A model generated the notes under the pieces. It made no database searches and had not been told where the DNA came from. It was given only the letters and a program-made list of their open reading frames with translations. Positions 26,854-44,227 of a stretch of DNA of 64,000 bases are shown piece by piece (position 1 is the stretch's first letter; each line of letters opens with the position of its first letter). Made by a program: the position numbers and the translations under genes. Origin of the DNA: an uncultured Verrucomicrobiota bacterium (lineage in GTDB: Bacteria; Verrucomicrobiota; Kiritimatiellia; CAIQIC01; Lenti-01); NCBI GenBank assembly GCA_964647595.1, contig CAZYGH010000002.1:3599-67598 (forward strand), in the 5' to 3' direction.

Positions 26854-27397
26854 CGAACATTTCCTGTAGTGTTGACAACGCATTGAACACGCGTGATTTT
26901 ACGGTACCAATTGGTATAGAAAGGATTACAGATATTTCTTCGTAGGAGAGACCCTGATGAATAGAGAGAATCAACACCTCTCGCAACTTGGGGGAGAGTT
27001 TCTCGAGCGCGGCCTGAACATCGATTTTCTTTTGAACCGCGCCGATGCCACCATCGGTGGATACCGGCATTTCTTCCCGATAGCGGTCGGAAAACAGTCG
27101 AAATCGAACGTGTCGACGAACCGAATCGACCCACACATGTCGAGCCAAGGTATAGAGAAAAGTCGTAAACTTGGCCGATGGTTTGTATTTTTTCCGATAG
27201 TTCCATAGCCGAATGAATGTCTCCTGCGCAAGGTCGTCGCCAGACATAGAAGCGCCCATGCGGGCAAAATAGTTCAATATGGGTCGTTGATGGCGAGAAA
27301 CCAGCATACCAAAGGCTTCCTCGTTATCATTTTTGACCTGAACCATGAGCGCAAGGTCATCCGTTTCGGGCTGGATGGAATCGGACATAACTGGCAT
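26840..27397 (-). CDS. ECF-subfamily RNA polymerase sigma-70 factor
   Basis: Region 2 (ETFIRLWNY...FTTFLYTLARH) and region 4 (LSYEEISVILSIPIGTVKSR) motifs. Confidence 0.8.
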   Translation of the reverse strand: MPVMSDSIQPETDDLALMVQVKNDNEEAFGMLVSRHQRPILNYFARMGASMSGDDLAQETFIRLWNYRKKYKPSAKFTTFLYTLARHVWVDSVRRHVRFRLFSDRYREEMPVSTDGGIGAVQKKIDVQAALEKLSPKLREVLILSIHQGLSYEEISVILSIPIGTVKSRVFNALSTLQEMFDENP

Positions 27398-27527
27398 TGT
27401 TGAATGGTTCGCTCAGAAAAGAAAAGCCTTTTGAGCGCTATGTAATTAATCGCAAACCGGATGAACCATTTCGTCTGTTGCATCGTTTATAGACGAAACA
27501 CATGAAAGTTCAAAAGAGGCACATGAA

Positions 27528-28658
27528 ATGAGCAAATGGATAACAGGTTGTTTGGTGGGATGGCTATGGACGGGCGTGACAGGAGGCGCCGTCTTGCCTC
27601 CTGAATTGGAAGGGGAAGCCCGAGCCGCCCTGAATCGAGGAGCCGCATGGCTGGCCGCACAACAGCAACCGGCTGGCTTTTGGGCCATTGAAGACTCGCC
27701 GGCCCTGACGGGTCTCTCGATGTGGGCCCTTCAACAAGCCGATCCTGCGGCTCATCGTTCCGCGATCGATCGCGCCATGGTTTTCATTTTGACCAGCGTG
27801 CAAGAAGATGGCTCGATCTGGCGCAAGCCGGCCCTTCAGCGCAAGGGTGGGGGACTGGCCAATTACAACACAGCCGTCTGCATGACCGCCCTTCACGCGT
27901 TGAACCGCCCTGAACTGCTTTCCGTGGTTCAACAAGCGCGCACCTACCTGTCAAAAATGCAATATCTGGACCCGAGCGTCTATCGAGGCGGAATGGGCTA
28001 CGATGCCGACCAAGGAAGGCCCTACACCGATCTCTCGAATTCCTACATGGCCTATGAAGCCATGCGCCTCACGCAGGATGTGGAAGATTTGCGCGCGGCG
28101 GGCGAACCCAAAGCCGATCTGGATTGGAAGGCGGCTCAGGAATTTTTGTCGCAGGTGCAAAATCTGGCGACGGTCAACACCAACTATTGGATTAGCGAAA
28201 GTCTGGACGACCAAGGCGGCTTTGCCTATTCCCCCGGCGCTGGCGCATCGACCACCAACGCAGAGGGCAAGGTGAGCCTGCGTTCTTACGGGAGTATGAC
28301 CTATGCCGGCCTGCTCGCGCTGATCTACTCCCAAGTGGATGCACAAGATGAGCGCGTGCAAGCCGCCAAAGACTGGGCCACCCGCCATTGGTCGCTGGAT
28401 GAAAACCCCGGCATGGAGCAGGAGGGGATCTACTATTTCTTTAATGTGCTCACCAAATCCCTTGCCGCTGTGGGCGATGAAACCCTGACACTTCCCGATG
28501 GCCTCACCGTTTCCTGGCGCGAAGAAGTGGTGCGCAAACTCATCGCTCTTCAGAAGCCAGAGGGTTTTTGGGTGAATGAAAACAATCGCTGGTGGGAAGC
28601 CGATCCCAATCTAGTGACCGCCTACACCCTGTTGGCCTTGTCTGCGGCCCTTCAATAA
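27528..28658 (+). CDS. Secreted prenyltransferase/squalene-oxidase repeat (terpenoid-cyclase-fold) protein
   Basis: Signal peptide. Repeats with QxxDG(S/G)(W/F) motifs (QQPAGFW, QEDGSIW, DQGGFAYS, KPEGFW). Confidence 0.65.
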   Translation: MSKWITGCLVGWLWTGVTGGAVLPPELEGEARAALNRGAAWLAAQQQPAGFWAIEDSPALTGLSMWALQQADPAAHRSAIDRAMVFILTSVQEDGSIWRKPALQRKGGGLANYNTAVCMTALHALNRPELLSVVQQARTYLSKMQYLDPSVYRGGMGYDADQGRPYTDLSNSYMAYEAMRLTQDVEDLRAAGEPKADLDWKAAQEFLSQVQNLATVNTNYWISESLDDQGGFAYSPGAGASTTNAEGKVSLRSYGSMTYAGLLALIYSQVDAQDERVQAAKDWATRHWSLDENPGMEQEGIYYFFNVLTKSLAAVGDETLTLPDGLTVSWREEVVRKLIALQKPEGFWVNENNRWWEADPNLVTAYTLLALSAALQ

Positions 28659-28689
28659 GGAATCGCCCGGCGCACTTACTTGCGGCTTC

Positions 28690-28895
28690 ACGCCGCCAAC
28701 GCGGTTTTCCACAGTGTGGAAACATTTCTTCCATTGTGTGGAAAGCGCGCGTCCCGCGCACGGATTGCCGAAGGCAAGTTCCGCTTCGGAACGAGGGCCA
28801 AACGTGGCCCGAAGCCCAATCGCGAAAAAATCTTCCATTCTATGGAAAACTTTTGCAACGGCGGCTATCACAGTTAATTAATTGTGATAGTCGTT
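28690..28895. promoter_or_regulatory. Cluster of palindromes in a convergent intergenic region: TTTCCACAGTGTGGAAA, TTCCATtgTGTGGAA, TTCCATtctATGGAA, ctatcacagTTAATTAAttgtgatag, plus two short hairpins
   Basis: Read from sequence between 28659 and 28900. Lies between the 3' ends of two convergent genes. Confidence 0.4.
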
Positions 28896-28900
28896 CGGCT

Positions 28901-29722
28901 TTATCGTCCGAATCGATCAAGGAAGGCTTCGAGTTCTGCGTTGCCAGCCCCGCCGGGAGTAAACCAGGAGCTGTCTTCGTGCTTGCCCGACAAGAGGACA
29001 AATGTTTTCGGAGATGCAGCGGCAGCATGCAAAATACGGCCACTTTGAAAAGGAACCACTTCATCCGTTGTGCTATGGGCAAACAGTTTGGGCATCCCAT
29101 TCAAGGTGGCCACTTTGGCGGCCGAATCGTACGAAACAGAAAGCAGGCGATCGAGGGGAAGGGAAGGGTACCACCGTTTGGCCATGTCGGCAGCGGAGGA
29201 AAAAGCGCCTTCCACAATCAGGGCGGCCGCCGGACGGTCTGTGGCCAATTGAATTGCTACGGCCGATCCCATCGACAAGCCGTAGACTACGATAGGCAAC
29301 TTGCCACTCATGGCAGCGGCAGCATCATACGCCGCACGGGCATCATCATAAAAACCGGCCTCGGATGGGCGGCCGCCGCTTCGACCATACCCTCTGTAAT
29401 CCCATAGTAGAACATTGAATCTTCTCTTAAAAAAATGGGGCGCCAAATAGGCAATGTCGCCGATATTTCCAGAATTTCCGTGGCAATAGACAATGGTTCC
29501 TCGTGGGCGATTGGCGGGAACCCACCAGCCATTCAGCGAGGTTCCATCGGACGCAACAAATTGGACATCCTGATAGCGAAGCTGAAACTGGGCGGGGGTG
29601 GTCGAAATTTCTGCTGTGGGGTGATAAAGCGCGGCAAATTCAAATCGGCGCAGATATACCCAGCCAAAGGCTATGGCCATCACCAGAATGCATACGATGG
29701 AGAGAAAGATTTTTTTCATCAC
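28901..29722 (-). CDS. Alpha/beta-hydrolase (S9/BEM46-like), membrane-anchored
   Basis: N-terminal TM, HGNSGNIGD, nucleophile elbow GLSMGSA. Confidence 0.75.
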   Translation of the reverse strand: MMKKIFLSIVCILVMAIAFGWVYLRRFEFAALYHPTAEISTTPAQFQLRYQDVQFVASDGTSLNGWWVPANRPRGTIVYCHGNSGNIGDIAYLAPHFFKRRFNVLLWDYRGYGRSGGRPSEAGFYDDARAAYDAAAAMSGKLPIVVYGLSMGSAVAIQLATDRPAAALIVEGAFSSAADMAKRWYPSLPLDRLLSVSYDSAAKVATLNGMPKLFAHSTTDEVVPFQSGRILHAAAASPKTFVLLSGKHEDSSWFTPGGAGNAELEAFLDRFGR

Positions 29723-30852
29723 CGTGTAGTTTCTAGTGTTTTAGGGAAGGTGGCGAGTACTTTGTGCCCCTTGCGTGTCACAACCACGGTGTCTTCGATG
29801 CGAACGCCACCGAGCCCAGGATAGTATAGCCCTGGTTCCACGGTGACAACATTGCCCTCCGAAAGACAACCGGGCTCGTTGCGTAAACCGGGCGACTCAT
29901 GAATATCAAGGCCCACGCCATGACCCACACTGTGGATGAATCCGCATTCCTTGCCGGCGGGAGAAAGACGCGTCTCGTGCCCAGCAGCGCGGAAGAAGTC
30001 TTCCACCGCATATTGAACGGCACTGGATTCCACACCGGGACGCACCATGGACAAAGCGAGTTTTTGCGCAGCAAGCACATCGCGATGCAACCGACGAACG
30101 GCATCGGTGGCACGACCCCGGACGACGGTGCGCGTGATATCGCCCCAGTAGCCGGTTATCTTGTCACGCGGAAAAATATCGATGACGATGGGCACGCCCG
30201 CCCGAAGCGGACCGGAGCCGACATCATGAGGTCGCGCGCCTTGAGGCCCAATGGCCACAATGGTTCCCTCGGCGGTACAATGCCGTTCCAACAGAGTGCG
30301 CTCAATCAAATCCTTCAGAAATTCCGAGGTCAGCGTCTTTCCGTCCACCTTCAATAGACCCGACGAAGAAATCGATGCCTCCCGAATGCAGGTTGTGGCC
30401 GCCCGCATCGCTGCAACAGCCGAACGCTGCGATTGGGTAATGAATCTCACTTCCCGGGCCGTCTTCACCGCACGGTTTGGAAAGGCGGAGTGGTGGGTCA
30501 CCTCCACCGTCACGCCTTGTTCTTCCAAGGAACGGGCAATACCCACAGGAAAAAACGGACCCACATCAACGGAAGAAAACCCAAGTGTTTTCAGAAGAAC
30601 AATCAGTTGGTCGCTGATGGATCGCCGCTTGGGAATTGCATCTCTAAAAAGCTGGGCTGGGGTGTGAAGAATAGCAGAAGGGCAGGTTTTCTTCGCACGG
30701 GAGGCTTCCAGCGCAGAAACGAGCAAATGGAGGCGGGAATCGACCACCAACAGGCAAAAAGGATCGGTCGCTACAAGGCCCGTGGCATAGCGCACATCAT
30801 TTTCTTCAAGGCCAGTGGCTATCAAAAGGCGGGGGACTGTTGATTTCTTCAT
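29719..30852 (-). CDS. Xaa-Pro aminopeptidase (peptidase M24)
   Basis: HSVGHGVGLDIHESP metal-binding motif, pita-bread fold signature. The ORF-track start at 30924 is a TTG. ATG at 30852 (MKKST...) is preferred. Confidence 0.8.
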   Translation of the reverse strand: MKKSTVPRLLIATGLEENDVRYATGLVATDPFCLLVVDSRLHLLVSALEASRAKKTCPSAILHTPAQLFRDAIPKRRSISDQLIVLLKTLGFSSVDVGPFFPVGIARSLEEQGVTVEVTHHSAFPNRAVKTAREVRFITQSQRSAVAAMRAATTCIREASISSSGLLKVDGKTLTSEFLKDLIERTLLERHCTAEGTIVAIGPQGARPHDVGSGPLRAGVPIVIDIFPRDKITGYWGDITRTVVRGRATDAVRRLHRDVLAAQKLALSMVRPGVESSAVQYAVEDFFRAAGHETRLSPAGKECGFIHSVGHGVGLDIHESPGLRNEPGCLSEGNVVTVEPGLYYPGLGGVRIEDTVVVTRKGHKVLATFPKTLETTR

Positions 30853-31139
30853 GTTTTTTGCGAATTTCGGCTCCGGGTGACTTGTTAATGAGCGAATTCT
30901 CAAGGGGTTAAGACCGCTTGACAATCACAAAATTCCTTGTCAAGGGGGGGGAGGACGGAAAAATTTAAAATCGAATAAGACACATCATATGGGATAAAGA
31001 GGGATTGAGACATCCATATGTGGTAGGATTCAAGATGCACGAGAGGAAAGTCTCACATGAACCTTGTCCTAGAGGAAGGGGACCCCTATAGTCGCAGACG
31101 TTTTAGGAGCCGAGAATCAAAAGACAGTTGTTAATAAAC

Positions 31140-31148
31140 TGTGGATAA
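31140..31148. promoter_or_regulatory. Consensus DnaA box (TGTGGATAA = TTATCCACA) upstream of dnaA
   Basis: Exact 9-mer in the 354-bp region upstream of dnaA. Weaker variants nearby (TGGGATAAA, TGTGGTAGG). Confidence 0.6.
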
Positions 31149-31278
31149 GTGGTTCAAAGGCCTGTCCTGCCGAGTCCAAATGGAGACGCGGGGAGGGCGG
31201 ATTTCCGGTGATATTTAAATTGTGCAGGCCGATTGGAAGTGAGAAACTGTCCGACCGAGTCAGGAAGAGGAATTTGTA

Positions 31279-32661
31279 GTGGAAACGACCCAGGCAAAAC
31301 AGATTTGGACAAAGGCATGCGAGTTCCTCTCGTCTGCCATTTCTGCGGACATCTATAACCGATGGATTGGCGTGATCGAAGCCATCGGCGACGACATGCC
31401 CGGACAGTTGACCCTAACGGTGCCGAACGGATTCTATCAGGACTGGCTTGAAGAGCATTACCTGTCCATGATCCACAAAGCCATTGAAGCATCGGGCGCA
31501 GAAAATGTGACGACTAGTTTTGTGGTGGACGGAGCGCGCCCTCCCGTCGAATCGCTTTCCACTCCACCACCACCGAGAGAAGAGAAAGAAACCGGCTCCA
31601 AGCGCCGTGTTTTGAAGTCGTGTAATGTGGGCGGCGTACTCAATCCACGCCACACGTTCGACAACTTTGTGGTGGGGCCCTCCAATAGTTTTGCCCATGC
31701 CGCTGCCTTGGCGGTGGTGGAGGCGCCAGGACGCGCTTACAACCCTTTGTTCATCCATGGCGGCACGGGACTCGGCAAGACTCATCTGATCCAAGCCATG
31801 GGCCAGGAAGTGCTCAAGCGGGGGAAGGGGACCGTCTGCTACGTCTCCTGCGAATCCTTCACAAATGAATACATTCAAGCTCTGAAGCAAAATGAAATTT
31901 CCGCCTTCCGAAAGAAATACCGCACAATCGACCTATTGCTGATTGATGACATCCATTTCCTCGCCGGCAAAGAAAGCACGCAGGAGGAATTCTTCCATAC
32001 ATTTAATACCCTGTATGAAAACCAAAAGCAGATCGTATTGACCAGCGATCGGCCCGTCAGCGAAATTGGGAATCTTCAAAAGCGTCTGGTTTCCCGATTT
32101 GAGTGGGGCCTAGGCACTGAGATGGAAATGGCCGACCTCGAAACCCGAGTGGCCATCCTTCGCAGACAGCGCGACCAATTGAACATTCATCTTCCGGACG
32201 ACACCCTGTTCTTTATTGCCGAACACGTGCGCTCCAACATTCGGAAGCTGGAAGGCTCGCTCCTTCGGGCCGCCTCCTATGCTTCCTTAACCCGCAAGCC
32301 CCTAACCACGGAAGCGCTCGAATATCTCCTGCGCGATACCATCGAACAGGAAAAACAGACCGCATTGACGATCGAAGGCATCCAGCGGACCGTCGCGGAA
32401 TACTACGACATCCGGTTGGGCGACATGACCAGCAAGCAACGGCCACAAAATATCGCGTTCCCCCGGCAGGTCGCCATGTATCTCTGCCGCGAGATGACCG
32501 ACCAATCCCTGCCCGCCATCGGAAATGGATTTGGCCGAAACCACGCCACCGTTCTTCATGCCCATCGCTCGGTGGGCGAAAAGATGAAGACCGACACCGG
32601 GCTTCGACAAACCATTCTTTCTCTTCAGCAACGGTTGGGCGGAGTGTCCGCCCCCGCGTGA
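31279..32661 (+). CDS. dnaA: Chromosomal replication initiator protein DnaA
   Basis: AAA+ Walker [11 protein letters not shown], sensor motifs, C-terminal DNA-binding domain (NHATVLHA). GTG start with aggaagagg RBS. Confidence 0.92.
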
Positions 32662-32726
32662 GATGATTGGCCTCGCACTGGATTCTGCCAAGGGATTTTC
32701 ACAGGAAGCTCAGACTCAAGCGAGAC

Positions 32727-32735
32727 TGTGGATAA
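32727..32735. promoter_or_regulatory. Consensus DnaA box (TGTGGATAA) 66 nt downstream of dnaA stop
   Basis: Exact match. Followed by the TGTGGACAA, GTCCACACA and ATCCACAGA variants inside the repeat. Confidence 0.6.
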
Positions 32736-32777
32736 CCCTGTGGGAATCGCTGGATTTCCTGTTCATAAACCATAATC

Positions 32778-32952
32778 CGTGTGGACAATCCCAAGTTGTC
32801 ACCTTTCCCCACAGGCAGGAGGGGGCCGTTCTCGACAGGTCCACACACGATAAAAGGCCCGTCTGGATTGATCGTTCAAGGATATGCACACGATCCACAG
32901 AACCTATTAATAATGCTTATTTAAACTTCTATATAAAAAAGAATAGAAGTAG
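32778..32952. repeat. Direct repeat copy 1 (~175 bp): DnaA-box-like motifs plus 45-bp AT-rich DUE-like tail
   Basis: ~90% identical to 33850..34023. The last ~107 bp are identical in both copies. Confidence 0.85.
32904..32950. promoter_or_regulatory. AT-rich putative DNA unwinding element (cctattaataatgcttatttaaacttctatataaaaaagaatagaag)
   Basis: ~80% AT in a ~60% GC genome, immediately 3' of the DnaA-box cluster. Confidence 0.5.
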
Positions 32953-32973
32953 AAGGCCATCTTCCGTATTTTC

Positions 32974-33189
32974 ATGCCGATGAAATCCATGGCCAAAATT
33001 GAAATACTCCGAAAGATGAAATCCAGTGCGGCATGGAAACGTGCGGAAGCCTATGGCATCGATATGTCCCTGTTGGAATCAAATCTTCGGCATACCGTTG
33101 CGGAACGTCTGCGTCAACACGATGCCGCCTTGCAAACCCTTCTCGCTTTGCGCGAAGCCGTGAAAAAGAAACATGCCACAACCGTCTGA
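32974..33189 (+). CDS. Small all-helical protein (71 aa), putative partner or antitoxin of the downstream nucleotidyltransferase
   Basis: ATG start. 17-nt overlap with the downstream gene. Charged helical sequence. Confidence 0.45.
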   Translation: MPMKSMAKIEILRKMKSSAAWKRAEAYGIDMSLLESNLRHTVAERLRQHDAALQTLLALREAVKKKHATTV

Positions 33190-33658
33190 CATTTTAAGAC
33201 TATTGAGTACACACGGTGTGGATTTCGTCGTGGTCGGCGGATATGCCGTCGTTGCCCACGGTGGAACCATGGTTACTCAAGATGTCGATGTCTGCTGCTG
33301 CTTTTCTCAAGAAAATCTCCTGCGCGTTCAGGATGCGCTCAAAGACGTCCATCCTGTTCATCGCATGACCCCAAAGCGGCTGCCGCTGCAGTTGACGGCG
33401 GATCATGGCCAAGGCCTTAAAAACATCTACCTAGACACAGATATCGGCCAGCTCGATTGCCTGAGCACGATTCTCGGAGTCGGCGATTTTCAGGAAGTGA
33501 AAAAACGAAGTTTTATGGTCAACATGAACGGCTACGAACTGCGACTGCTGGAATTGGATGCCCTCATCGCAGCAAAAAAAGCTATGACCCGACCTCGCGA
33601 CAGAGAAGCTGTCATTCAACTCGAGGCGTTGCGGGACGGCGGAAAAGAAGGGGAATAA
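33173..33658 (+). CDS. Pol-beta-superfamily minimal nucleotidyltransferase (AbiEii/MNT-like, DUF6036-like)
   Basis: VVGGYAVVAHGGTMVTQDVDVCC matches the hG[GS]x9-13Dh[DE]h NTase motif. 161 aa. Confidence 0.6.
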   Translation: MPQPSDILRLLSTHGVDFVVVGGYAVVAHGGTMVTQDVDVCCCFSQENLLRVQDALKDVHPVHRMTPKRLPLQLTADHGQGLKNIYLDTDIGQLDCLSTILGVGDFQEVKKRSFMVNMNGYELRLLELDALIAAKKAMTRPRDREAVIQLEALRDGGKEGE

Positions 33659-33849
33659 CATGCCTGACCTCGCACAATTCCAACTTTTAAAATGCCTTTG
33701 TCCTAAAGGCATCTATTAGAAGAAGAGGGAACATCCTCCATATGTTCATGGCGCGACTACCCTCCCTCAAGGAATTGGAAAATTTCTGCCCAAAAAGATG
33801 AATTTGAAACTAACTACAACAATATTAGATTATAGGCCTGACCCCATTT

Positions 33850-34023
33850 CGTGTGGACAATCCCCAGTGATCCCCTTTCCCCACAGGCAGGAGGGGGCCG
33901 TTCTCGACAGGTCCACACACGAAAAATGCCGACCTGGATTGATCGTTCAAGGATATGCACACGATCCACAGAACCTATTAATAATGCTTATTTAAACTTC
34001 TATATAAAAAAGAATAGAAGTAG
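33850..34023. repeat. Direct repeat copy 2 (174 bp) with its own AT-rich DUE-like tail (33975..34021)
   Basis: Aligned by eye to copy 1. Ends 42 nt before the wzx ATG. Confidence 0.85.
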
Positions 34024-34065
34024 TAGGTGGGCCTTCGTTCCTTTTTTTAATGATAGTTCAATCTC

Positions 34066-35424
34066 ATGACGTATTTCCAGCGTATCTTCCGTAGCTTAAG
34101 TTCGACACAGCAAAAAGTCGCATCCAATGTCTATTGGGCTGTTGTGGGGCATATGGCTCGGATTCTCTCCGAGCTACTGGTCGGCATACTCGTGGCACGC
34201 TATCTCGGTCCAGAACAATACGGACTGATGAGCTATGTCATCAGCTTTGTTTCCATTTTTTCTATTTTGGCTACTTTTGGTTTAGACCATATCGAGGTGC
34301 GCGAACTGGCGGGGGACAAACTGCCGAAAGAAGCCGTGCTTGGGACGGCCTTCCGGCTACGACTGATTTTCGCGCTCCTCACGATGGGGATCGTCCTTCT
34401 CACGGTTCAGGCCTTTGAAGTCGACGCCTCCGTCCGATTGCTGATTCTTGTGTATTCGTTTTCTATTATTCTGAACAGCTTCTATGTCATCCGGAACTAC
34501 TTCACGGCGATCGTGAGAAACAAATTTGTGGTCAAGGCCGAGATCACAAGAATTGTGTTCGGTGCAATTATCAAGATTCTCCTGATGCTGTTGCGAGCTC
34601 CCCTTCTGTGGTTTGTAGTTGCGGTGACATTTGATTTCCTCCTGCTTGCGACTGGATATGTGTATGCGTACCGTTCACAGGTTGGCTCGCTCCGCGAATG
34701 GCGGTTTGATAGGAGCATCGCCCACTTTCTCATTCGCCAGTCCTTCCCGTTGCTACTCTCTGGTGCGGCGGTCATTGTTTACCAGCGCATTGATCAGATC
34801 ATGCTCCGTAACATGCTGAACAATGCGTCGGCAGGCTACTTTTCGACTGCGGATAAATTCGCAAATCTTGTCATGTTTATTCCCTTGATTCTCACTCAAA
34901 CGATCAGTCCTTTGCTTGTGAAGACGAGAGCAGATAACCCAGAGCTGTATCGTAAGCGCAGACAACAATTTGTGGGTACGGTCTTGTGGGTAACCATCGG
35001 ACTATCCATTGTGATCAGCATCTTCTCTCACGCACTGATTGCGATGACATTCGGGAAGCAGTTCTTGAGTGCTGTGCCTGTTTTGAAGGTTCTTTCATTC
35101 CGGGCAGTCGGAATGGCTCTGTCTGCCGCCTCTGGACAACTGATCATCATCGAGGATATTCAAAAGTGGGCGTACATAAGAAATGTGATTGGATGTTGTG
35201 TCTGCGTCATCATCAATCTCTTGGCTATTCCGCGCTATGGGATTGTTGGAGCGGCATGGGCCTCTGTAATTACTGTTCTTGCGAGTGGTTTTTTTGCGAA
35301 CTTTGTAATTCCAAAGTACCGGGCGATCGCATGGATTCAATTATCAAGCCTGCTTATCGGTTGGCGTGACCTATTTGATTCCTGTATCAACGTATTCAGA
35401 AATATGAGGGAAAAGAGAACATGA
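34066..35424 (+). CDS. wzx: Polysaccharide biosynthesis protein / O-unit flippase Wzx
   Basis: ~12 TM segments, PST-family N-terminus. First gene of the polysaccharide locus. Confidence 0.7.
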   Translation: MTYFQRIFRSLSSTQQKVASNVYWAVVGHMARILSELLVGILVARYLGPEQYGLMSYVISFVSIFSILATFGLDHIEVRELAGDKLPKEAVLGTAFRLRLIFALLTMGIVLLTVQAFEVDASVRLLILVYSFSIILNSFYVIRNYFTAIVRNKFVVKAEITRIVFGAIIKILLMLLRAPLLWFVVAVTFDFLLLATGYVYAYRSQVGSLREWRFDRSIAHFLIRQSFPLLLSGAAVIVYQRIDQIMLRNMLNNASAGYFSTADKFANLVMFIPLILTQTISPLLVKTRADNPELYRKRRQQFVGTVLWVTIGLSIVISIFSHALIAMTFGKQFLSAVPVLKVLSFRAVGMALSAASGQLIIIEDIQKWAYIRNVIGCCVCVIINLLAIPRYGIVGAAWASVITVLASGFFANFVIPKYRAIAWIQLSSLLIGWRDLFDSCINVFRNMREKRT

Positions 35425-36395
35425 CAATACGAAGATGTTTGTCTTCTCTAAAAATCAAATGGTTGCTTGCCAAAGAGATCTTTTCGTTTTGGAAGTTGAT
35501 TCGTCGACACAACGCATCCGTGGCATCAGAGAAAAGTAGCAATAAAATGCGTTATTCACTGTTGCGAGATACACATGTAATTGAAAAGGCCATGTCCCTG
35601 AGGAATCCACGCAGGGGCTTCGGGCAACAGAAGATCTTGGGGATATTGGACAAAATCGAGGTATATTTGAAATACCCCGAGAACGACATCGAGTTTGTTA
35701 AGTATCCGTTAGCTGTTATTAAGAGTTATATTGATTATACCCAGACAATCGGAGTGAACATACACCAGATCGAGGATCGGTATCGTCATCTGCTTTCCAA
35801 GGTGAATGGTGAAAAAATTTCGTTCGTAAGCGGTGTTACACACATCACTCGAAAAGAAATTATTGAACAATCCGGTAAATCTTTTGAGTCGTTCTTGTAC
35901 AGCCGTCACTCTGTCCGATATTTTACATCCGTAGTGCCAGATCGCGAACAGATTGAGAGGGCACTACTGATGGCGCAGCAAACACCATCCGCTTGCAATA
36001 GACAAGGGTGGCGAACGCACCTATTTTTTGGAGAGAGTAGTTATCAATTGGTTCGTTGGCAGCAAGGGGCAAATGGATTTGAAGATGAGGTGCATTGCTC
36101 CATTCTTGTGACGGCTGATCTTAATGCTTTCTTCTCACATGAGGTTCATCAGGCATATGTTGACGGGGGCATGTATGCGATGACATTGATCCATGCGCTT
36201 CATTCGTTAGGTTTAGGTACGATACCTCTTTCTTGTGGAGTATATTGCGACAGACTATATAAATTAAAAGAGCTGTTTGCCATACCCGATAATGAGGTAC
36301 CCATCTTGATTATCGGAACTGGAAATATGGAGGACTCTTTCAGGGTCGCTGTTTCGGCAAGAAAAGAGGTTTCAGAAACAAATACCTACCACTGA
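35421..36395 (+). CDS. Nitroreductase-family protein with ~130-aa N-terminal extension
   Basis: SRHSVRYFT and QQTPSACNRQGW nitroreductase motifs. Low GC (~43%). Confidence 0.65.
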   Translation: MTIRRCLSSLKIKWLLAKEIFSFWKLIRRHNASVASEKSSNKMRYSLLRDTHVIEKAMSLRNPRRGFGQQKILGILDKIEVYLKYPENDIEFVKYPLAVIKSYIDYTQTIGVNIHQIEDRYRHLLSKVNGEKISFVSGVTHITRKEIIEQSGKSFESFLYSRHSVRYFTSVVPDREQIERALLMAQQTPSACNRQGWRTHLFFGESSYQLVRWQQGANGFEDEVHCSILVTADLNAFFSHEVHQAYVDGGMYAMTLIHALHSLGLGTIPLSCGVYCDRLYKLKELFAIPDNEVPILIIGTGNMEDSFRVAVSARKEVSETNTYH

Positions 36396-36432
36396 AAATG
36401 CCAGTTAGAAAAACAGATAAGGTTCGCCAGTT

Positions 36433-37653
36433 ATGAAAATCTTGCTTATTAACCAGCCGATTGAAAATCGTGGCGATGAATCGGCGCATCGTGGTTTAGT
36501 GCGTGCGCTGGTTGGAAGCATACCGGCTGTGCAGATTGTGTGCGTCTTTCTAGGGGCTCGGGCTGAAAGCGTGAGACAAATGGCGGTGAGCAGTCCAAAC
36601 GTGAAGTATGTGATTATACCGATGCGTCGTGGAACCTATCGCCTGCCTGCCTTGGCACTCCAAACGCACCTGTGGAGGCCTGTGGCGGCTTTGCATCCAG
36701 CCTACCGTCAACTAAAACAGTACATGAGAGATGCTGATTATGTGATTAATGCACCGGGTGGCATTTGTATGGGCGGATTTCAGAGTTGGGGGCACATCCT
36801 CTACTTGATGTTGGCGAGAGAAGCCGGGAAGCCAACGGCCTACTATTCGAGATCATTTGGTCCCTTTCGTATCGCTACCCGGACGGATCGGCTTTTCAAG
36901 CGTTACAGCCTATCGCTTCTGAAGTCATTTGACTTCCTGTCTATTCGTGATCAGAAAACCATGGAGCTTGCGGACAACCTCGGTCTACACTACGTTCCGG
37001 CCATTGATACCGCATTTTTGCATGTTCCGGAGGTCGTCATTCCGACAGAAGTGAGGGAGGCCACAGGTACGGACTACACTGTTTTTGTGCCCAATTCCTT
37101 GGTTTGGCATACGGATTATCACCGATCGGATTCTTCTCGCATCAATAATTTCTTCTTAAAAACGCTCGACTTGTTGCTTGCAAAACGACCAGAGTCCAAG
37201 ATTGTCATGCTTCCTCAATTGTACAACCTAGGCGATCTTGGTGATGAACCCTATTTTGAGAGTTTGCGATGCCGGAGTTCACTGCCGGAACGGATTGTTG
37301 TATTGCCGGACTCCATCGGGTCGGACATTCAGCAGGCCATCATCGCCAAGGCCGGATTCGTGGTCGGCGCCCGTTATCACACAATTGTTTTTGCGATCAA
37401 CAATCGGGTGCCGTTCGTCGCTTTCACCTATGAGCATAAGATTGCTGGATTGTTGGATGTATTACATCTCGAAGATCGGCAGATCGACATAGGCGACCTC
37501 GGAAAATCGACATTCGATGACTCGGCCACCTTCAATGCGCTTACACGATTGTTGAATCATTCAAAACCACTCGATGTGGCGGCCAATCGGGCACGAAAAA
37601 TTGCCAATGACTGTTTTCAAGCCCTTATCACTCGCCTCACGGTTGCACTATGA
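36433..37653 (+). CDS. Polysaccharide pyruvyl transferase family protein (CsaB/WcaK-like)
   Basis: MKILLINQPIENRGDE N-terminus, size and cluster context. Confidence 0.6.
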   Translation: MKILLINQPIENRGDESAHRGLVRALVGSIPAVQIVCVFLGARAESVRQMAVSSPNVKYVIIPMRRGTYRLPALALQTHLWRPVAALHPAYRQLKQYMRDADYVINAPGGICMGGFQSWGHILYLMLAREAGKPTAYYSRSFGPFRIATRTDRLFKRYSLSLLKSFDFLSIRDQKTMELADNLGLHYVPAIDTAFLHVPEVVIPTEVREATGTDYTVFVPNSLVWHTDYHRSDSSRINNFFLKTLDLLLAKRPESKIVMLPQLYNLGDLGDEPYFESLRCRSSLPERIVVLPDSIGSDIQQAIIAKAGFVVGARYHTIVFAINNRVPFVAFTYEHKIAGLLDVLHLEDRQIDIGDLGKSTFDDSATFNALTRLLNHSKPLDVAANRARKIANDCFQALITRLTVAL

Positions 37654-38933
37654 TTGTAAATATTATTCCCATTCTTATTTTTGCCGTACTCTGTACGGTC
37701 ACCGCCTGGCGCATGTGGCAACCGCAACAAGGGCGGCGGCTCGGCGCCTATGTTATGTTGTTGTACGGGTTGATTGCGATCGCCGGTATGGGTTGTGCCT
37801 TGCGTTTTTTCCCAGCCTTCTCTGCTCCAGAGATTCTACCCCTTCTTCATATTTATCTTATGATCCTTTTGCTTACGTTGCCGATTTACAGATTTAGCGA
37901 AGGTACTATTCGGGTAATTGACTTTTCTTCTCGCCGTGTATTTTTAGGGTTTGCCTATGGCATTGCTGTGGTTACGGTGGTCGGATATCTTGCGTATATT
38001 CCCGATGCATTCGCCAACGCATCCGATGCATTTAGGTTCGACTCTTTTAAGGAGACATATTCTGACCAGCGTGTGGATGGAAGCCTGAAGACGGGCTTGA
38101 GCATGGCCAATATTCCACTGGTAATTGCGAATTCATTTAGCGAGGTGGTTCCGTTTCTTTTGGCTTGTCTCCTTGGCTTCAAACGGCATCTTCTATTGAA
38201 ATATTTGCTTTTAACTTCTATCTTGTGTTCTCTTCTAATGGTGACGGGTTCGGCGGGCCGTAACGGCCTGGTTTTTTTCTGTTTGGTCATCGTGGGGACG
38301 ATCATGCTTTTCTGGAATTTGTTATCTACTCAAACTAGGCGAAGGTTCCTTATGGGATCAGCGGCCTTAGTCATATTCCTTTTCGTTATCGTTGTGAGGA
38401 TCACACTGAGCCGATTTGGTACCCGCGAGGATATGACCCCGATGGATTCTGTCTTAATCTACGCGGGGCAGCCCTTGCTGAACTTCGGTGAGTTCATCTA
38501 TAATGCACGGATGACCTGCAACGGCGATATGAACTTTCCGCTGTTTCGGGCAATGTTGGGGCTGGATTACTCCGCATCGCTTGATATTCGAACTCAGGTA
38601 TGGGAAATGCCCTTGGGGGTTCCTCTGGGTGTATTCTATACGATATTCGGTGATTTGATTCTAGACTTTGGTTCCATGATTACGACGGTACTTGTTCTGG
38701 CCTTGGCATTCTTTATCATGTGCAATGCGGGCCACAGTGGCAAAAACACTCAGGTTCACAGGCTATTCTTGGTGTATGTGTTATTTCTGATTGTGAGTAA
38801 AGGTATCTTCTACTATCCCTACAAGACCATTACCGGAAACCTGCAAGTCCTATGCATGATAGCGATCTATCTGTTCTTTCGCTTTACGGCGAAAGAAACG
38901 AGTCAGCACAATGATTTGGAAGGGGTGCCATGA
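37650..38933 (+). CDS. Wzy-like oligosaccharide repeat-unit polymerase (polytopic membrane protein)
   Basis: ~10-12 TM helices, no soluble domain, positioned between transferases. Confidence 0.5.
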   Translation: MIVNIIPILIFAVLCTVTAWRMWQPQQGRRLGAYVMLLYGLIAIAGMGCALRFFPAFSAPEILPLLHIYLMILLLTLPIYRFSEGTIRVIDFSSRRVFLGFAYGIAVVTVVGYLAYIPDAFANASDAFRFDSFKETYSDQRVDGSLKTGLSMANIPLVIANSFSEVVPFLLACLLGFKRHLLLKYLLLTSILCSLLMVTGSAGRNGLVFFCLVIVGTIMLFWNLLSTQTRRRFLMGSAALVIFLFVIVVRITLSRFGTREDMTPMDSVLIYAGQPLLNFGEFIYNARMTCNGDMNFPLFRAMLGLDYSASLDIRTQVWEMPLGVPLGVFYTIFGDLILDFGSMITTVLVLALAFFIMCNAGHSGKNTQVHRLFLVYVLFLIVSKGIFYYPYKTITGNLQVLCMIAIYLFFRFTAKETSQHNDLEGVP

Positions 38934-40087
38934 CCGCGCGCGTGATTGCCTTTTATCTGCCGCAGTTCCATCCGATTCCAGAGAATGATCGTTGGTGGGG
39001 AAAAGGCTTCACAGAGTGGACGAATGTGGCGAAGGCCCGTCCACTGTTCCGAAGGCACTATCAGCCCCGCATACCGGCTGATCTTGGCTTCTACGACCTA
39101 CGGTTAGCTGAAGTGCGCGAACAGCAGGCTGAACTGGCGAAAGAAGCTGGCATTGAGGGATTTTGCTATTGGCATTATTGGTTTGGAAATGGAAGGCGTA
39201 TTCTGGAGCGTCCGTTCAACGATGTTCTTGCGTCCGGTCGTCCAGACTTTCCGTTTTGTTTGGCCTGGGCCAATCACTCATGGTCAAGTAAGACGTGGAT
39301 TCAATCAGGGAAGAATTCTGAACTGTTAATCGAACAGATCTATGATGGGGAAGAGGACTACCGGGCTCATTATGATGCAGTTCTTCCTGCCTTTAAGGAT
39401 GAGCGGTATATTCGCGTCGATGGAAAACCATTGTTCGTTATCTATGATATAAGAGCTATTCCTGATGTATCCTTCTTTCTTAATTTGTGGCGTCATCTTG
39501 CTGAGAAAGACAATTTACCCGGAATCCATTTTGTTGCTTTTAGCGAATCGACATCAAGCTGGCGAGTTTTGCCAAATGGAGAAAAGCATCGAGTGATTCC
39601 AAAACCAGATATGGCAACTGAAGTGTTCACCAGTCTATTCGCTTTGGGCGTCGATGCAATTGCATCGTCTGGAAAGAATAGGGCGGAGATGCTGACAAAA
39701 GGAAGGTATTCAAGATTCTTCAGCATTCTACTCCACCTTCTTGGCTGGGATAGAATGCAAAAACCATACGATTATCGGCGCATTATTGATCACTTTTTCG
39801 TGAAAGAAGATTCATGGGAAAACGTTTATCCTTCAATCCTTCCCCAGTGGGACAGGAGTCCGCGAACTGGCAGCACGTACGATGTGTATGTTGGATCTAC
39901 GCCCGCCCTATTTCGCGAATTTGCTGTTAGGGCTATCTCGCAGGTTAAGAACAAGAAGCATGAGCATCAGATACTATTCTTGCGATCGTGGAACGAGTGG
40001 GCCGAAGGGAATTATATGGAACCGGACCAGAAATTTGGTAGAGAATATATTCAGGCATTACGCTCTGCGTTAGACACAATCGTGTAA
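38930..40087 (+). CDS. WbsX-family glycosyltransferase (GH99-like fold)
   Basis: FYLPQFHPIPENDRWWGKGFTEWTNV N-terminal signature of PF14307. Confidence 0.8.
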   Translation: MTARVIAFYLPQFHPIPENDRWWGKGFTEWTNVAKARPLFRRHYQPRIPADLGFYDLRLAEVREQQAELAKEAGIEGFCYWHYWFGNGRRILERPFNDVLASGRPDFPFCLAWANHSWSSKTWIQSGKNSELLIEQIYDGEEDYRAHYDAVLPAFKDERYIRVDGKPLFVIYDIRAIPDVSFFLNLWRHLAEKDNLPGIHFVAFSESTSSWRVLPNGEKHRVIPKPDMATEVFTSLFALGVDAIASSGKNRAEMLTKGRYSRFFSILLHLLGWDRMQKPYDYRRIIDHFFVKEDSWENVYPSILPQWDRSPRTGSTYDVYVGSTPALFREFAVRAISQVKNKKHEHQILFLRSWNEWAEGNYMEPDQKFGREYIQALRSALDTIV

Positions 40088-40348
40088 AAACAATTATAGC
40101 CCCTCCAGAACTGCAAAAATGGATCATCTTCTCCCTTGGAGGGACGACATCTGCGTCGTACGGGTATGTTTTGAAAGTGCCTCGAAGTAGATGATCTATT
40201 TGTTTAGACGTGAAATGATAGAAAACGTAATAATTTCTCAGGATGTGGTTGCCAATGAAGATCAGGACTATCTTGGTAGACGAACAGAATGCATTTGGTT
40301 CAAGAGCTTGGTCAGGTGGAAAAGAAGAATGAGTGCATAGGAACAGGC

Positions 40349-41545
40349 ATGGGGAATTCAAATAGGCATCTATGCCGCATCTCTTCCATTGGGAGAGTCG
40401 AATATACTCGCAATTATGCGTTGCTCTCGACGCTAGTTAAGCAAGGGTATCGTGTGTCGTCGATCTCCCCTGGATCGCTCGCCGGTAGTACGCAAGAGTC
40501 TGAGATTCGCCATTATGCCGTACCCGCACCGAGCGAGAATTTCTGGCATGAAAACAGGATTTCAACGACATTGAGGGCGATCAGGCAACGCCTGATCATT
40601 ATACGCCATGTCGCGCATTTGTTGGAAGAAGTCCAGCCTGATATCATCTTATGTTCGGAACCGGATGCTTGGACGCTAGCCGTTCATATCCGTAAAAAAA
40701 GGCGTTGCCGGATTATCGTTGATTTGCAGGAGTTTTATGAAGATAGAGTGTTGTCGTTGCCGAGGTTCGTGAGACCTCTAGCAAGACTCGTGATGAGATG
40801 CTGGTTACGCCATTTGGCCCGGAATTCTGATTTGATCATTCATGTAAGTTCAGAACGTCAGGCGGAGTATGCATATTTATGCGAGCCTGGGATTGTTGTT
40901 GGCAATTATCCGAATCTTTCCGATTTCCCTGATATCAAGCCAATATGGACTCAGACAACGGCACCATCCGGAAACATTGTGTTTCTACACGCGGGGGCCT
41001 TAAGACCGAGTTATGCTTCCGATCAATTGATAGAAGCGATCGATATCGCCGCTCTGCGCGATTCGCGTGTGCGCCTTCTGGTGCTTGGTGGAATTGCTGG
41101 AAATCTAATCAATCGCAACCTGATTCAACGTTTAATCGAAAGCGGAACGATCGAAATCAAGGAGCAAGTACCCCATCGCGATGTTCGGCAGCATATGCTG
41201 GCTTGTCATGTAGGAGTGTCTCTTGTCTTACCGATCGACACGGCGCACCGACTTGCGGCACCCCAAAAACTCTACGAGTATTTCGCGGCTGGCCTGCCAG
41301 TTCTGGTGGCGGACGTTCCCACATTACGCCGCGTGATTACTGAACATGAGTGTGGAATTCTTGTCGATCCCTATAGCCCAGAATCTATTGCCGATGGACT
41401 CTTGCGCATGGTTCAGGATCCGGCACGGTTACTTCAGATGGCGGATCGTGGGCGGCGCGCATTTGTGCAAGATTATAACTGGGAACGCCAAGAAACTTTA
41501 CTCTGTGGTGCCGTTAATTACGCTTTGGGACGTCCAAGACCGTGA
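40349..41545 (+). CDS. Glycosyltransferase family 4
   Basis: C-terminal GT-B motif EYFAAGLPVLVADVPTLRRVITEHECGILV. Start uncertain (ORF begins 40289). Confidence 0.65.
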   Translation: MGNSNRHLCRISSIGRVEYTRNYALLSTLVKQGYRVSSISPGSLAGSTQESEIRHYAVPAPSENFWHENRISTTLRAIRQRLIIIRHVAHLLEEVQPDIILCSEPDAWTLAVHIRKKRRCRIIVDLQEFYEDRVLSLPRFVRPLARLVMRCWLRHLARNSDLIIHVSSERQAEYAYLCEPGIVVGNYPNLSDFPDIKPIWTQTTAPSGNIVFLHAGALRPSYASDQLIEAIDIAALRDSRVRLLVLGGIAGNLINRNLIQRLIESGTIEIKEQVPHRDVRQHMLACHVGVSLVLPIDTAHRLAAPQKLYEYFAAGLPVLVADVPTLRRVITEHECGILVDPYSPESIADGLLRMVQDPARLLQMADRGRRAFVQDYNWERQETLLCGAVNYALGRPRP

Positions 41546-42789
41546 ATATCGCAATTGTCTCCGCCGTCTACCCGCCCGAGCCCGTGGTCTCGGCTCAGAT
41601 GGGGCGGGATTTGGCTGTGCATCTAGCTAAACAGGGGCACAGGGTTCAGGTGATGTGCCCATCGCCATCTAGGCCAATCGGTGCGAATTATGACGATTTG
41701 AAAGCTACACAGGGGCCGCTGGTACGCATGGAAGAAGGGGTTGAGGTTGTTCGGCTACCTTCCTTCACGGCACCGGAATCGAAGTTTCTTCTGCGGATGC
41801 GGGAAAGTGCCAGTTTCGGACGGCATGTTGTTCGTTATATGGGCGCGATGCGTGAGAAGCCCGACGTGGTCTATATGAACGCATGGCCATTATTCGCTCA
41901 GGCAGGTATCTCTAATTTCTGCTTCCGTTACGGCATTCCTCTGATTCTGCAGGTGATGGATATCTATCCCGAGTCCCTGCTTCAAAAGTTGCCCGCATGT
42001 GTCCGCAGGATGGTGAAGGCCCCATTGTTGTGGATGGATCGCCGAATAGCCAGGCGGGTGAATCATGTGGTCGTGATTTCCCATTCGATGCGTCGATATT
42101 TCGCTCAAACCAGATGTCTTGACCTGCAGAAAATTTCGATGATTCATACATGGTGCGATGATGCGCAATTTGCAGAAATGCCCGAGAGAACGGTTTGTTT
42201 TGACCGTTACAAGATGCGATCGGATCGGTTCACGTTCCTCTTTCTCGGAAATATTGGTCCCGTAGCCGGAGTGGAGTTGCTTGAGCGGGCTTTTCACAGC
42301 GCAAAGTTGCAGAATGCGCAACTGATTATTGCCGGTGACGGTTCTGCAAAAGAAGAATGCATTCGTCTTAAAGAACGACTCGGCTTAACCGACACCTTTT
42401 TCATTTCTGATCCGGATGTCACCCATACGCCATATTTGCTTGGCATGGCGGATGCGTGTCTTCTTCCAATGCAGATGGGGTGCGCAAATAGCTCGATACC
42501 CTCCAAGCTGATGGCGTATATGCTTTCTGGACGGCCGATCATCTCATCTGTCGACCGCGACAGTGACACCGCACAATGTATTCGAGATGCCGATAATGGT
42601 TGGGTTGGGGAGCCAGAGAATGTTCATTGGCTTGCTGACAAGATGCGGGAGGTGGCGGCAATGCCCATTGAGGACTTGGCGTGGCTTGGAAGTAATGGTC
42701 AAAACTATGGAATAAGACACTTTGGCAAGACCTCCGGGGTCTCCAAGCTAGCCCAGATTACCAACGATTCGGTCTGTGTGGTTCGGTGA
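41542..42789 (+). CDS. Glycosyltransferase family 4 (WcaI/WbuB-like)
   Basis: MNIAIVSAVYPPEPVVSAQ N-terminus, GT-B C-terminal domain. 4-nt overlap with upstream GT. Confidence 0.75.
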   Translation: MNIAIVSAVYPPEPVVSAQMGRDLAVHLAKQGHRVQVMCPSPSRPIGANYDDLKATQGPLVRMEEGVEVVRLPSFTAPESKFLLRMRESASFGRHVVRYMGAMREKPDVVYMNAWPLFAQAGISNFCFRYGIPLILQVMDIYPESLLQKLPACVRRMVKAPLLWMDRRIARRVNHVVVISHSMRRYFAQTRCLDLQKISMIHTWCDDAQFAEMPERTVCFDRYKMRSDRFTFLFLGNIGPVAGVELLERAFHSAKLQNAQLIIAGDGSAKEECIRLKERLGLTDTFFISDPDVTHTPYLLGMADACLLPMQMGCANSSIPSKLMAYMLSGRPIISSVDRDSDTAQCIRDADNGWVGEPENVHWLADKMREVAAMPIEDLAWLGSNGQNYGIRHFGKTSGVSKLAQITNDSVCVVR

Positions 42790-42802
42790 GTGAAAGAGTA
42801 TT

Positions 42803-44227
42803 ATGAAGATGATGATGGGAAAACGTATGAAAAATCTGGTTCCGGTTGATGAAGTAACCCAAATACGGCAAGTTCATAAGGAATTTCGTGATGATGCAGA
42901 TTCCAAGTGTTGTGACGATAATGCCGTGAGTTTTCAGGGAATGAAGCGGGTTGAAGCGATTACTCAGGAAACGCTGAATATGCTCGGAGTTGACCGCCGG
43001 ATTGGCGAACTTGACATTCTCGATGTCGGGTGTGGAAACGGTCATTGGCTTAAACGATGGCAGTCGTGGGGAGCGTCCGCCGGGCGGCTAACCGGCGTGG
43101 ATTTGAGAGAGTCCGACATCGATTTTGCACGGCAAAATTTTTCCGAATCACATTTTGTGACGATGCGTGGTGGTGAGCTACCTTTTCCGGATGCGTCGTT
43201 CGATATTGTTTTTCAGAATTGCGCATTTTCTTCCATTCTTTCGACGGATCTCCGGAAAAAAGTGGCCGCAGAGATCAAGCGTGTTCTGAAACCATGCGGG
43301 CTATTTTTGAGTTGGGATCTAGCCATGAATAGTCCGAATAATCCTACTGCTATGGCGTTGCGAAAGCAGGATTTATCCATGCTCTTTCCAGAGATGGACT
43401 TCATTCGTGATGTCCGCATAACGCTGGCTCCGCACCTTGCCAACTGGTTGGCTTCCCGATCGATCAAGGTCGCAGGCTTCTTTGAAACCGCATTTCCTTT
43501 TCTGAGGACACATTTGTTTGATGTGCTTCAAAAAAGGCCAGCCGTTCGGGATGGGATATCCATCCGAGTAGCCGTGAAAGCGGATGTCGATGCGTTGGTG
43601 GAACTACATCTATCTTCGTTTACTCCTGACAATCATTTGGGTATGCTTCTTGGAGCGGATTTTGTTCGGGCATCGTATTATTGGCATCTTGCCGATAAGA
43701 GAGGATACGTGATCGTTGCGGAATTGAATGGAAGATTGGCCGGATTGCTTGGTATGTGTGATGGACCATTTACCATTCCTATGCTCTGGGCTTGCAGATG
43801 GACCTTTTTGAGGGCACTTTTGCGTCATCCTAGATTACTCACAGATAGGCGTCTGTGGCGGCGATTGAAAAGGGAAAAAGTAAGTGTAAAATGGGTGTCT
43901 GAGTTTTGTTCATGGCCCAACGTTTCGCAAATGACGATTGGTGCTGTAGCGGCTACGGCGCGAGGGCACAACGTATTTCCTCTTATGATAAAGCATTGTG
44001 ATGAAATCAATAAGGCGCATGGGGTAGCAGCAACAAGAGCAGGCGTCTATCGAGAAAACTTGTCTTGTCAACGCGCCTTTGTGAAAAGTGGGTGGACGGA
44101 AATTCCCGAACTTGGTTCTTCGGAGACCGTGTACTTTGTTCGTGTCTTTAGTTCTGATTTGTTGAAGAGATTTCCTGATTTGGTACTTGCCGGGGTAAAA
44201 GAAGCAAAGAATGAAAAGGACATTTGA
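42803..44227 (+). CDS. Bifunctional class-I SAM methyltransferase / GNAT-like acyltransferase domain protein
   Basis: LDVGCGNGHW SAM motif in N-terminal half. C-terminal half is GNAT-like (VIVAELNGRLAGLLGM). Confidence 0.5.
   Translation: MKMMMGKRMKNLVPVDEVTQIRQVHKEFRDDADSKCCDDNAVSFQGMKRVEAITQETLNMLGVDRRIGELDILDVGCGNGHWLKRWQSWGASAGRLTGVDLRESDIDFARQNFSESHFVTMRGGELPFPDASFDIVFQNCAFSSILSTDLRKKVAAEIKRVLKPCGLFLSWDLAMNSPNNPTAMALRKQDLSMLFPEMDFIRDVRITLAPHLANWLASRSIKVAGFFETAFPFLRTHLFDVLQKRPAVRDGISIRVAVKADVDALVELHLSSFTPDNHLGMLLGADFVRASYYWHLADKRGYVIVAELNGRLAGLLGMCDGPFTIPMLWACRWTFLRALLRHPRLLTDRRLWRRLKREKVSVKWVSEFCSWPNVSQMTIGAVAATARGHNVFPLMIKHCDEINKAHGVAATRAGVYRENLSCQRAFVKSGWTEIPELGSSETVYFVRVFSSDLLKRFPDLVLAGVKEAKNEKDI

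Follow-up and report, generated by a model that had tools for sequence, protein, structure and literature searches.

A small helical protein and a compact nucleotidyltransferase encoded beside dnaA: a putative MenAT1-like toxin–antitoxin module

We report that two overlapping genes next to dnaA, in 64 kb of DNA from an uncultured Verrucomicrobiota bacterium (the whole stretch that was analysed, hereafter the window), form a conserved, self-contained two-gene module. The first gene (32974–33189, + strand, ATG start) encodes a small, basic, helical protein of 71 aa, a putative antitoxin or regulatory partner. The second (33173–33658, + strand, ATG start) encodes a compact nucleotidyltransferase (NTase) of 161 aa with a Pol-beta fold, DUF2204/DUF6036-like in sequence and MenT1-like in fold, a putative toxin. 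Because no characterised system is closer than MenA1–MenT1 in layout and in the fold of the toxin, we give a slight preference to reading the pair as a MenAT1-like toxin–antitoxin (TA) module in which the NTase would be the toxin and the small protein its antitoxin; as to which partner is toxic, the analysis leans towards the NTase. The module is widespread and uncharacterised, and it extends the known theme of NTase toxins held by short antitoxins rather than representing a new kind of biology.

Linkage and distribution of the two genes

Both open reading frames (ORFs) are genuine genes and not chance ORFs, as judged from their homologues: those of the NTase form at least 1292 clusters at 90% identity, and a profile search with the small protein yielded 922 clusters at 90% identity, with 1411 representatives at 50% clustering and lengths that nearly all fall between 50 and 115 aa. 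The true start of the small gene is uncertain. In another assembly the gene caller chose the ATG at 32989 (M6), which gives a protein of 66 aa (P0121), and conservation starts only near residue 19, in the protein alignment and the DNA comparison alike. The NTase gene is absent from at least one public annotation: on the ENA contig k141_332227, identical to positions 27279–36661 of the window, the 161-aa NTase is uncalled and two antisense ORFs (68 and 76 aa) are annotated in its place (locus coordinates 5922–6383 of L084), which, given the homology of the NTase, is an annotation error.

To follow the pair across genomes, we fetched 83 loci encoding relatives of the NTase. Co-occurrence in other genomes, whose absence the preliminary description of this DNA had named as part of a refuting outcome, proved to be strict: a homologue of the small ORF lies directly upstream of the NTase in 83 of 83 loci (extracted in 81, and seen by tblastn in the other two). 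The carriers belong to Planctomycetota (Phycisphaerae, Sedimentisphaerales and Pirellulales), Verrucomicrobiota, Kiritimatiellota and Lentisphaerota, with a few further metagenome-assembled genomes labelled Rokubacteria, Acidobacteriota or Aegiribacteria; cultured carriers are Pontiella sulfatireligans F21 (L025) and Pontiellaceae B12227 (L024). Among 185,579 species genomes, a scan with narrow patterns confirmed 412 matches, which makes the module accessory and its distribution patchy.

In the window the last 17 nt of the small gene (33173–33189, + strand) are also the first of the NTase gene, as first described. Among the 81 loci with an extracted small ORF, the overlap measures 4 nt in 47, 8 nt in 12, 14 nt in 8 and 17 nt in 7; it is 1, 38 or 44 nt in the remaining 7, where the 38- and 44-nt values may stem from the NTase start chosen in the analysis. 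An overlap of usually 4–17 nt fits translational coupling, which the gene arrangement would imply. The two proteins also diverge together, the Mantel correlation of their distance matrices being 0.746, a value reached by 0 of 2000 permutations. The small protein is the faster-diverging of the two (mean distance 0.60, against 0.43 for the NTase). Antitoxins usually outpace toxins in divergence.

The surroundings of the pair vary from locus to locus. No cluster of flanking genes is common to more than 6 loci, and the 121 nearest flanking proteins, mostly housekeeping enzymes, spread over 108 Pfam families with at most 5 proteins per family. Integrase, transposase, defence and mobile-element genes are not enriched among these 121 neighbours. 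DNA similarity between loci is confined to the two ORFs and ends at their borders. The pair thus has the generic layout of a type II-like TA operon, with small co-directional genes, coupled translation, strict co-occurrence, a less conserved upstream partner and a variable neighbourhood. The preliminary description had proposed a TA or abortive-infection-like pair. The TA-like anatomy stands, in the overlap, the co-divergence and the unrelated neighbours; the abortive-infection and defence part found no support, since neither protein matched a PADLOC model, searches of plasmid, phage and IMG/VR collections returned no relatives, and the neighbourhood has no excess of defence or mobile-element genes.

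We found no natural fusion of the small protein to the NTase, and the long matches turned out to be C-terminal extensions or miscalled starts. Two single instances of other architectures were seen: a 256-aa metagenomic protein (P0371) joins the small-protein domain (residues 5–54) to a Maf-like nucleoside-triphosphate pyrophosphatase domain, and a 115-aa protein (P0349) carries the small domain in two tandem copies. Both may be gene-call artefacts. In two of the closest related loci (L002 and L003) the pair sits amid sugar-nucleotide or polysaccharide genes, a setting that is not general across the loci.

The nucleotidyltransferase

The GG-x(n)-DVDV signature noted at the outset reads GG-x13-DVDV, at G22G23 and D37-V-D39-V within the segment DFVVVG22G23YAVVAHGGTMVT35QD37VD39VCC. 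The protein has the hallmarks of the Pol-beta NTase superfamily, namely hG[GS], a DxD on the next strand, a third acidic residue and an alpha-beta-alpha-beta-alpha-beta core. It matches DUF2204 (PF09970; 27.3 bits, Pfam cut-off 20.3), as do 25 of 29 family members, and DUF6036 (PF19502; 25.7 bits, cut-off 23.6), as do 28 of the 29. These margins are small (E 1e-5 to 1e-7, a few bits over the cut-off), and the NTase therefore represents a divergent clade. DUF6036 was one of four families named at the outset for hidden Markov model searches. Of the other three, PF08843 (DUF1814/AbiEii/MenT) was matched by 0 of 29 family members at E ≤ 10, nor by the NTase of the window at E ≤ 1; PF01909 (MNT) gave two weak, sub-threshold matches among the 29 (E about 0.12); and HEPN, sought in the partner, is taken up below. 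NCBIfam and PADLOC scans (PADLOC-DB 2.0, E ≤ 1) returned no match for either protein and a PDB sequence search nothing significant for either, and PHROGs gave weak matches only, to a generic nucleotidyltransferase phrog (E 2e-4) and to a phrog of unknown function (E 0.0085).

The structure model of the NTase (pLDDT 92.9, pTM 0.88) supports the description of the protein as a minimal Pol-beta NTase and places the MenT1 toxin first in both structural rankings. In one, MenT1 (8AN4) scored 12.7 over 134 residues at 20% identity; in Foldseek, MenT1 (8AN5_B) was the top match (E 3.8e-6, TM 0.60). Next came TM1012 (11.8; Foldseek E 3.4e-5, TM 0.59), LnuA (11.1; E 5.6e-5, TM 0.60), the Megavirus poly(A) polymerase (10.9; E 0.029, TM 0.53), ANT(2'')-Ia (10.6; E 6.3e-5, TM 0.53), TglT/MenT3 (9.9), JHP933 (9.8; E 5.4e-4, TM 0.43) and MenT4 (8.7), MenT3 and MenT4 not being among the 50 Foldseek matches listed. 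As TM1012, LnuA and ANT(2'') follow MenT1 within about one order of magnitude in Foldseek, the fold is best assigned to a compact MenT1/TM1012/LnuA/ANT(2'') class. Taken alone, the modelled fold is compatible with an RNA or a small-molecule substrate and decides for neither.

In a local profile alignment, gap-free over the catalytic motif, FVVVGGYA...T35-Q-D37-V-D39 falls on WALVGGFA...T-R-D-V-D of MenT1, so that T35, D37 and D39 align with T39, D41 and D43; the alignment is not significant alone (E 0.34) and is supported by the structural match. Both DUF1814 motifs I and II, hGG and [S/T]xDxD, are present, with an invariant T35 two residues before the first Asp. Twelve residues, G22, G23, T35, D37, D39, H63, R64, D90, D95, K135, R140 and D143, are conserved at 97% or more in 81 sequences, and this conservation of the catalytic set argues that selection keeps the NTase active. 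K135, R140 and D143 lie in C-terminal helices, as do K137, R146 and D149/D152 of MenT1, at a different spacing, and may correspond to DUF1814 motifs III (catalytic Lys) and IV (Asp).

These data bear on the possibility that the NTase acts on small molecules (antibiotics or metabolites) in the manner of LnuA and ANT(2''), with the small protein as a regulator or chaperone. The fold similarity to LnuA and ANT(2'')-Ia is real, and this alternative, like the two others considered below, is kept alive by the charge pattern of the pair, the invariant polar residues of the partner, the conservation of the NTase across phyla and the lack of a link to plasmids, phages or defence. We nevertheless regard it as very unlikely. 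PF10706 scores 14.8 bits against the NTase, below its cut-off of 21. LnuA and ANT(2'') have a His at the position of the invariant Thr. To our knowledge, the known antibiotic NTases are single, stand-alone genes that lack a translationally coupled, co-diverging partner, whereas the partner here is obligate. Finally, T35 precedes the first catalytic Asp by two residues, and a Ser or Thr so placed is a feature of MenT/DUF1814 proteins (PMC11375011).

The small partner and its possible roles

The all-helical character attributed to the partner was borne out by an AF2 model with four helices (residues 4–16, 19–26, 31–38 and 42–70; mean pLDDT 82.8). Its conserved core spans residues ~19–65, where D30, H49 and L59 are invariant and A24, G28, N37, E44, R45, A52 and L53 are at least 90% conserved; a conserved Tyr, Ser or Thr that could act as an acceptor is missing. 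The family is basic (median pI 10.1 in 81 loci), and the NTase family acidic (median pI 5.9 in the same number). Pfam, NCBIfam and PADLOC models gave no match to the small protein. The partner had also been judged to be neither a HEPN nor an AbiEi protein, and this held: HEPN is absent from the Pfam matches of 44 small proteins at E ≤ 10, the core of ~45 aa has R45-x3-H49 in place of the HEPN motif Rx4-6H, and neither a Pfam helix-turn-helix (HTH) match above noise nor a fold match links it to AbiEi/COG5340. The fold search likewise brought up no recognisable nucleic-acid-binding fold. The small-protein profile also matched k-cTRP5, a designed repeat protein (E 6e-15); because that score adds up five occurrences of one 28-residue match, with E 0.24 apiece, the match was dismissed as chance.

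Of the characterised systems, MenA1–MenT1 of M. tuberculosis (Rv0078B–Rv0078A; PDB 8AN4, 8AN5 and 8RR5) comes closest, with a short helical protein encoded upstream of an NTase, as here. MenA1, a helical antitoxin of 68 aa, has no DNA-binding domain; its gene lies upstream of that for the single-domain NTase toxin MenT1, which adds CMP to tRNA 3' ends; MenA1 neutralises MenT1 by direct asymmetric binding and by inducing autophosphorylation of T39 (PMC10435456, PMC11375011; background in PMC7450476). The suggestion that the pairing is undescribed thus holds in part: the architecture is known from MenA1 and MenT1 (PMC10435456), whereas these two sequence families are undescribed as a pair. The NTase here shares only ~20% identity with MenT1 over the structural alignment, does not match PF08843 and spaces its C-terminal motif differently, and no likeness of the small protein to MenA1 (Rv0078B) could be detected in sequence or in fold. 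The hosts differ as well, PVC bacteria here and Actinobacteria there, and the present pair is known from sequence and models. MenT1 itself is not toxic in E. coli.

Other systems stand further away. AbiEi–AbiEii, MenA3–MenT3 and MenA4–MenT4 combine a COG5340 antitoxin with a DUF1814 NTase toxin (type IV/VII TA, abortive infection). Their antitoxins are of ~200–290 aa, with a winged HTH and a C-terminal antitoxicity domain, whereas the partner here consists of ~70 aa of helices; the NTase is about half the size of MenT3 and MenT4 (290–292 aa), and neither a PADLOC AbiE match nor a phage-defence context was found. From DUF6036 (PF19502), DUF2204 (PF09970) and TM1012 (PDB 2EWR, 2FCL and 4HX0) the NTase is divergent. 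These families have no known function, and a literature search on them brought up no functional study; in the papers searched, DUF6036 goes unnamed and DUF2204 is named once, for an unrelated protein.

If the pair works like MenA1–MenT1, it would be an autonomous, horizontally mobile TA-type module built around an active Mg2+-dependent nucleotidyltransferase. Free NTase would extend a cellular nucleic acid by added nucleotides, most likely at tRNA 3' ends, and so arrest translation. The small protein (~66–71 aa) would be made at a fixed ratio to the NTase through translational coupling, and this basic protein would bind the acidic NTase directly and block its active site. A further effect may be to make the NTase phosphorylate itself at T35, which is positioned as the MenT1 phosphoacceptor T39 is. 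Toxicity, an RNA substrate, the identity of the toxin, physical binding and phosphorylation are what we infer from this analogy.

Several observations speak against the TA reading. The NTase is acidic and its partner basic, the reverse of what would be expected of a toxin that binds RNA and of its antitoxin. The invariant or nearly invariant polar set of the small protein (D30, N37, E44, R45 and H49) exceeds the needs of a simple plug. NTase identity across phyla, at 55–60%, is unusually high for a toxin. The NTase family is not detected by PF08843, and the small protein is unlike MenA1. Relatives were not found in the plasmid, phage and IMG/VR collections, nor a second copy of the pair within the 64-kb window.

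From the same polar residues and the basic charge of the partner one can argue for a second view, which we consider quite unlikely: rather than simply inhibiting, the partner would be built into a new two-component system of nucleotidyl transfer, as the nucleic-acid-binding or specificity subunit of an acidic NTase that is inert without it, or as a remodeller of the active site. The pair would then represent either a new heterodimeric class of RNA-modifying enzymes or NTase toxins under a new antitoxin fold, PVC-wide.

A related alternative dispenses with toxicity. Here the two proteins would form a two-subunit enzyme with a role such as RNA 3'-end tailing or repair, or in the stress response, and the small protein would not inhibit the NTase but be required by it, as a subunit that binds nucleic acid, confers specificity or activates the enzyme. 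The points listed above for a small-molecule NTase also keep this alternative alive, and we hold it to be unlikely on three counts. The 412 matches in 185,579 genomes, in ever-changing contexts, look like an accessory mobile module and not like a core function; the small protein lacks a recognisable nucleic-acid-binding fold; and MenT1, the best-characterised structural neighbour, is a toxin with exactly such a gene layout.

The roles could also be reversed, as in the type VII system HepT–MntA (HEPN/MNT), with toxicity residing in the small protein and the NTase neutralising it as an enzymatic antitoxin, by nucleotidylation. Antitoxin action by AMPylation of the partner is established for the MNT-type NTase of HepT–MntA, a system that shares with the present pair a minimal NTase and a small helical protein. 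The opposite charges would favour a tight enzyme–substrate complex, and H49 of the small protein is invariant, in addition to the points common to the other alternatives. The partner, however, has no HEPN features and no conserved Tyr, Ser or Thr acceptor, and we therefore consider a reversal extremely improbable. The NTase, moreover, lacks a proper match to the MNT models PF01909 and PF18765 (only the 2 sub-threshold PF01909 matches in 29 members) and has MenT-like fold neighbours, and the gene order is opposite to the usual mntA–hepT.

Should the pair be a TA system, as we slightly prefer, the MenT-type mechanism, in which nucleotides are added to tRNA ends to arrest translation under the control of a tiny helical antitoxin, possibly with induced autophosphorylation, would reach beyond DUF1814 into DUF6036/DUF2204 NTases and into PVC bacteria, a group with very few studied systems of this type. 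Two sizeable orphan families would thereby gain a function, the NTase with at least 1292 clusters at 90% identity and the small protein with 1411 at 50%. The family's invariant Thr, located where MenT carries its phosphoacceptor, also bears on how general antitoxin-induced NTase autophosphorylation may be.

Position of the pair beside dnaA

The gene pair adjoins dnaA (31279–32661). Cumulative GC skew reaches its minimum at ~24–34 kb of the window, where strongly negative values give way to positive ones. The 64 kb contain just two perfect DnaA boxes (TTATCCACA), one on either side of dnaA, at 31140–31148 and 32727–32735. On these grounds the window probably contains the chromosomal replication origin, with the pair inside that region. 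An Rfam search of 31–35 kb returned nothing beyond a sub-threshold match to AsdA, the antisense RNA of the dnaA mRNA, inside dnaA (31756–31817, − strand; 22.7 bits, gathering score 52, E 0.17), which is probably due to chance. No tRNA gene adjoins the pair.

A direct repeat of ~180 nt brackets the two genes. The upstream copy (32778–32956, + strand) precedes the small gene and holds a DnaA-box-like TTGTCCACA (32780–32788), an AT-rich stretch and a promoter-like site, TGCACA-18-AATAAT (32885–32914, + strand); it is the probable promoter region of the operon. The downstream copy (33850–34027, + strand) is 94% identical, lies just upstream of a Wzx-like gene that begins at 34066, and again holds the DnaA-box-like TTGTCCACA, the AT-rich stretch and a duplicate of the promoter-like site (33956–33985, + strand); it would mark the far boundary of an inserted or duplicated segment. 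Independent Logan contigs break inside the repeats, and none of the 83 related loci has the repeat. Third-position GC content (GC3) is 0.53–0.54 in the pair, against 0.65 in dnaA. The bracketing repeats with their promoter element, the contig breaks within them, the position in the origin region and the lower GC3 suggest that the cassette arrived by a recombination that duplicated a promoter/origin segment, which would now also serve the Wzx-like gene. An empty site lacking the cassette was not found: contigs that encode the exact DnaA protein either match the window at 100% identity or break off within the repeat.

Between the NTase gene and the downstream repeat, 34 nt past the NTase stop, lies a hairpin (33692–33712, + strand) with an 8-bp stem, a 5-nt loop and no U-tract. 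The segment 33659–33740 folds at −19.5 kcal/mol (z −2.3), and a terminator scan did not call the hairpin, which may form the transcript end or a stabiliser.

Right past the second repeat copy begins a stretch of lower GC content (window positions 34000–44000; 0.46–0.49, against 0.54 for the whole window). Its first gene encodes a Wzx-like flippase (34066–35424) and is followed by genes for a nitroreductase (35421–36395) and a polysaccharide pyruvyl transferase (36433–37653); together these first genes suggest polysaccharide biosynthesis.
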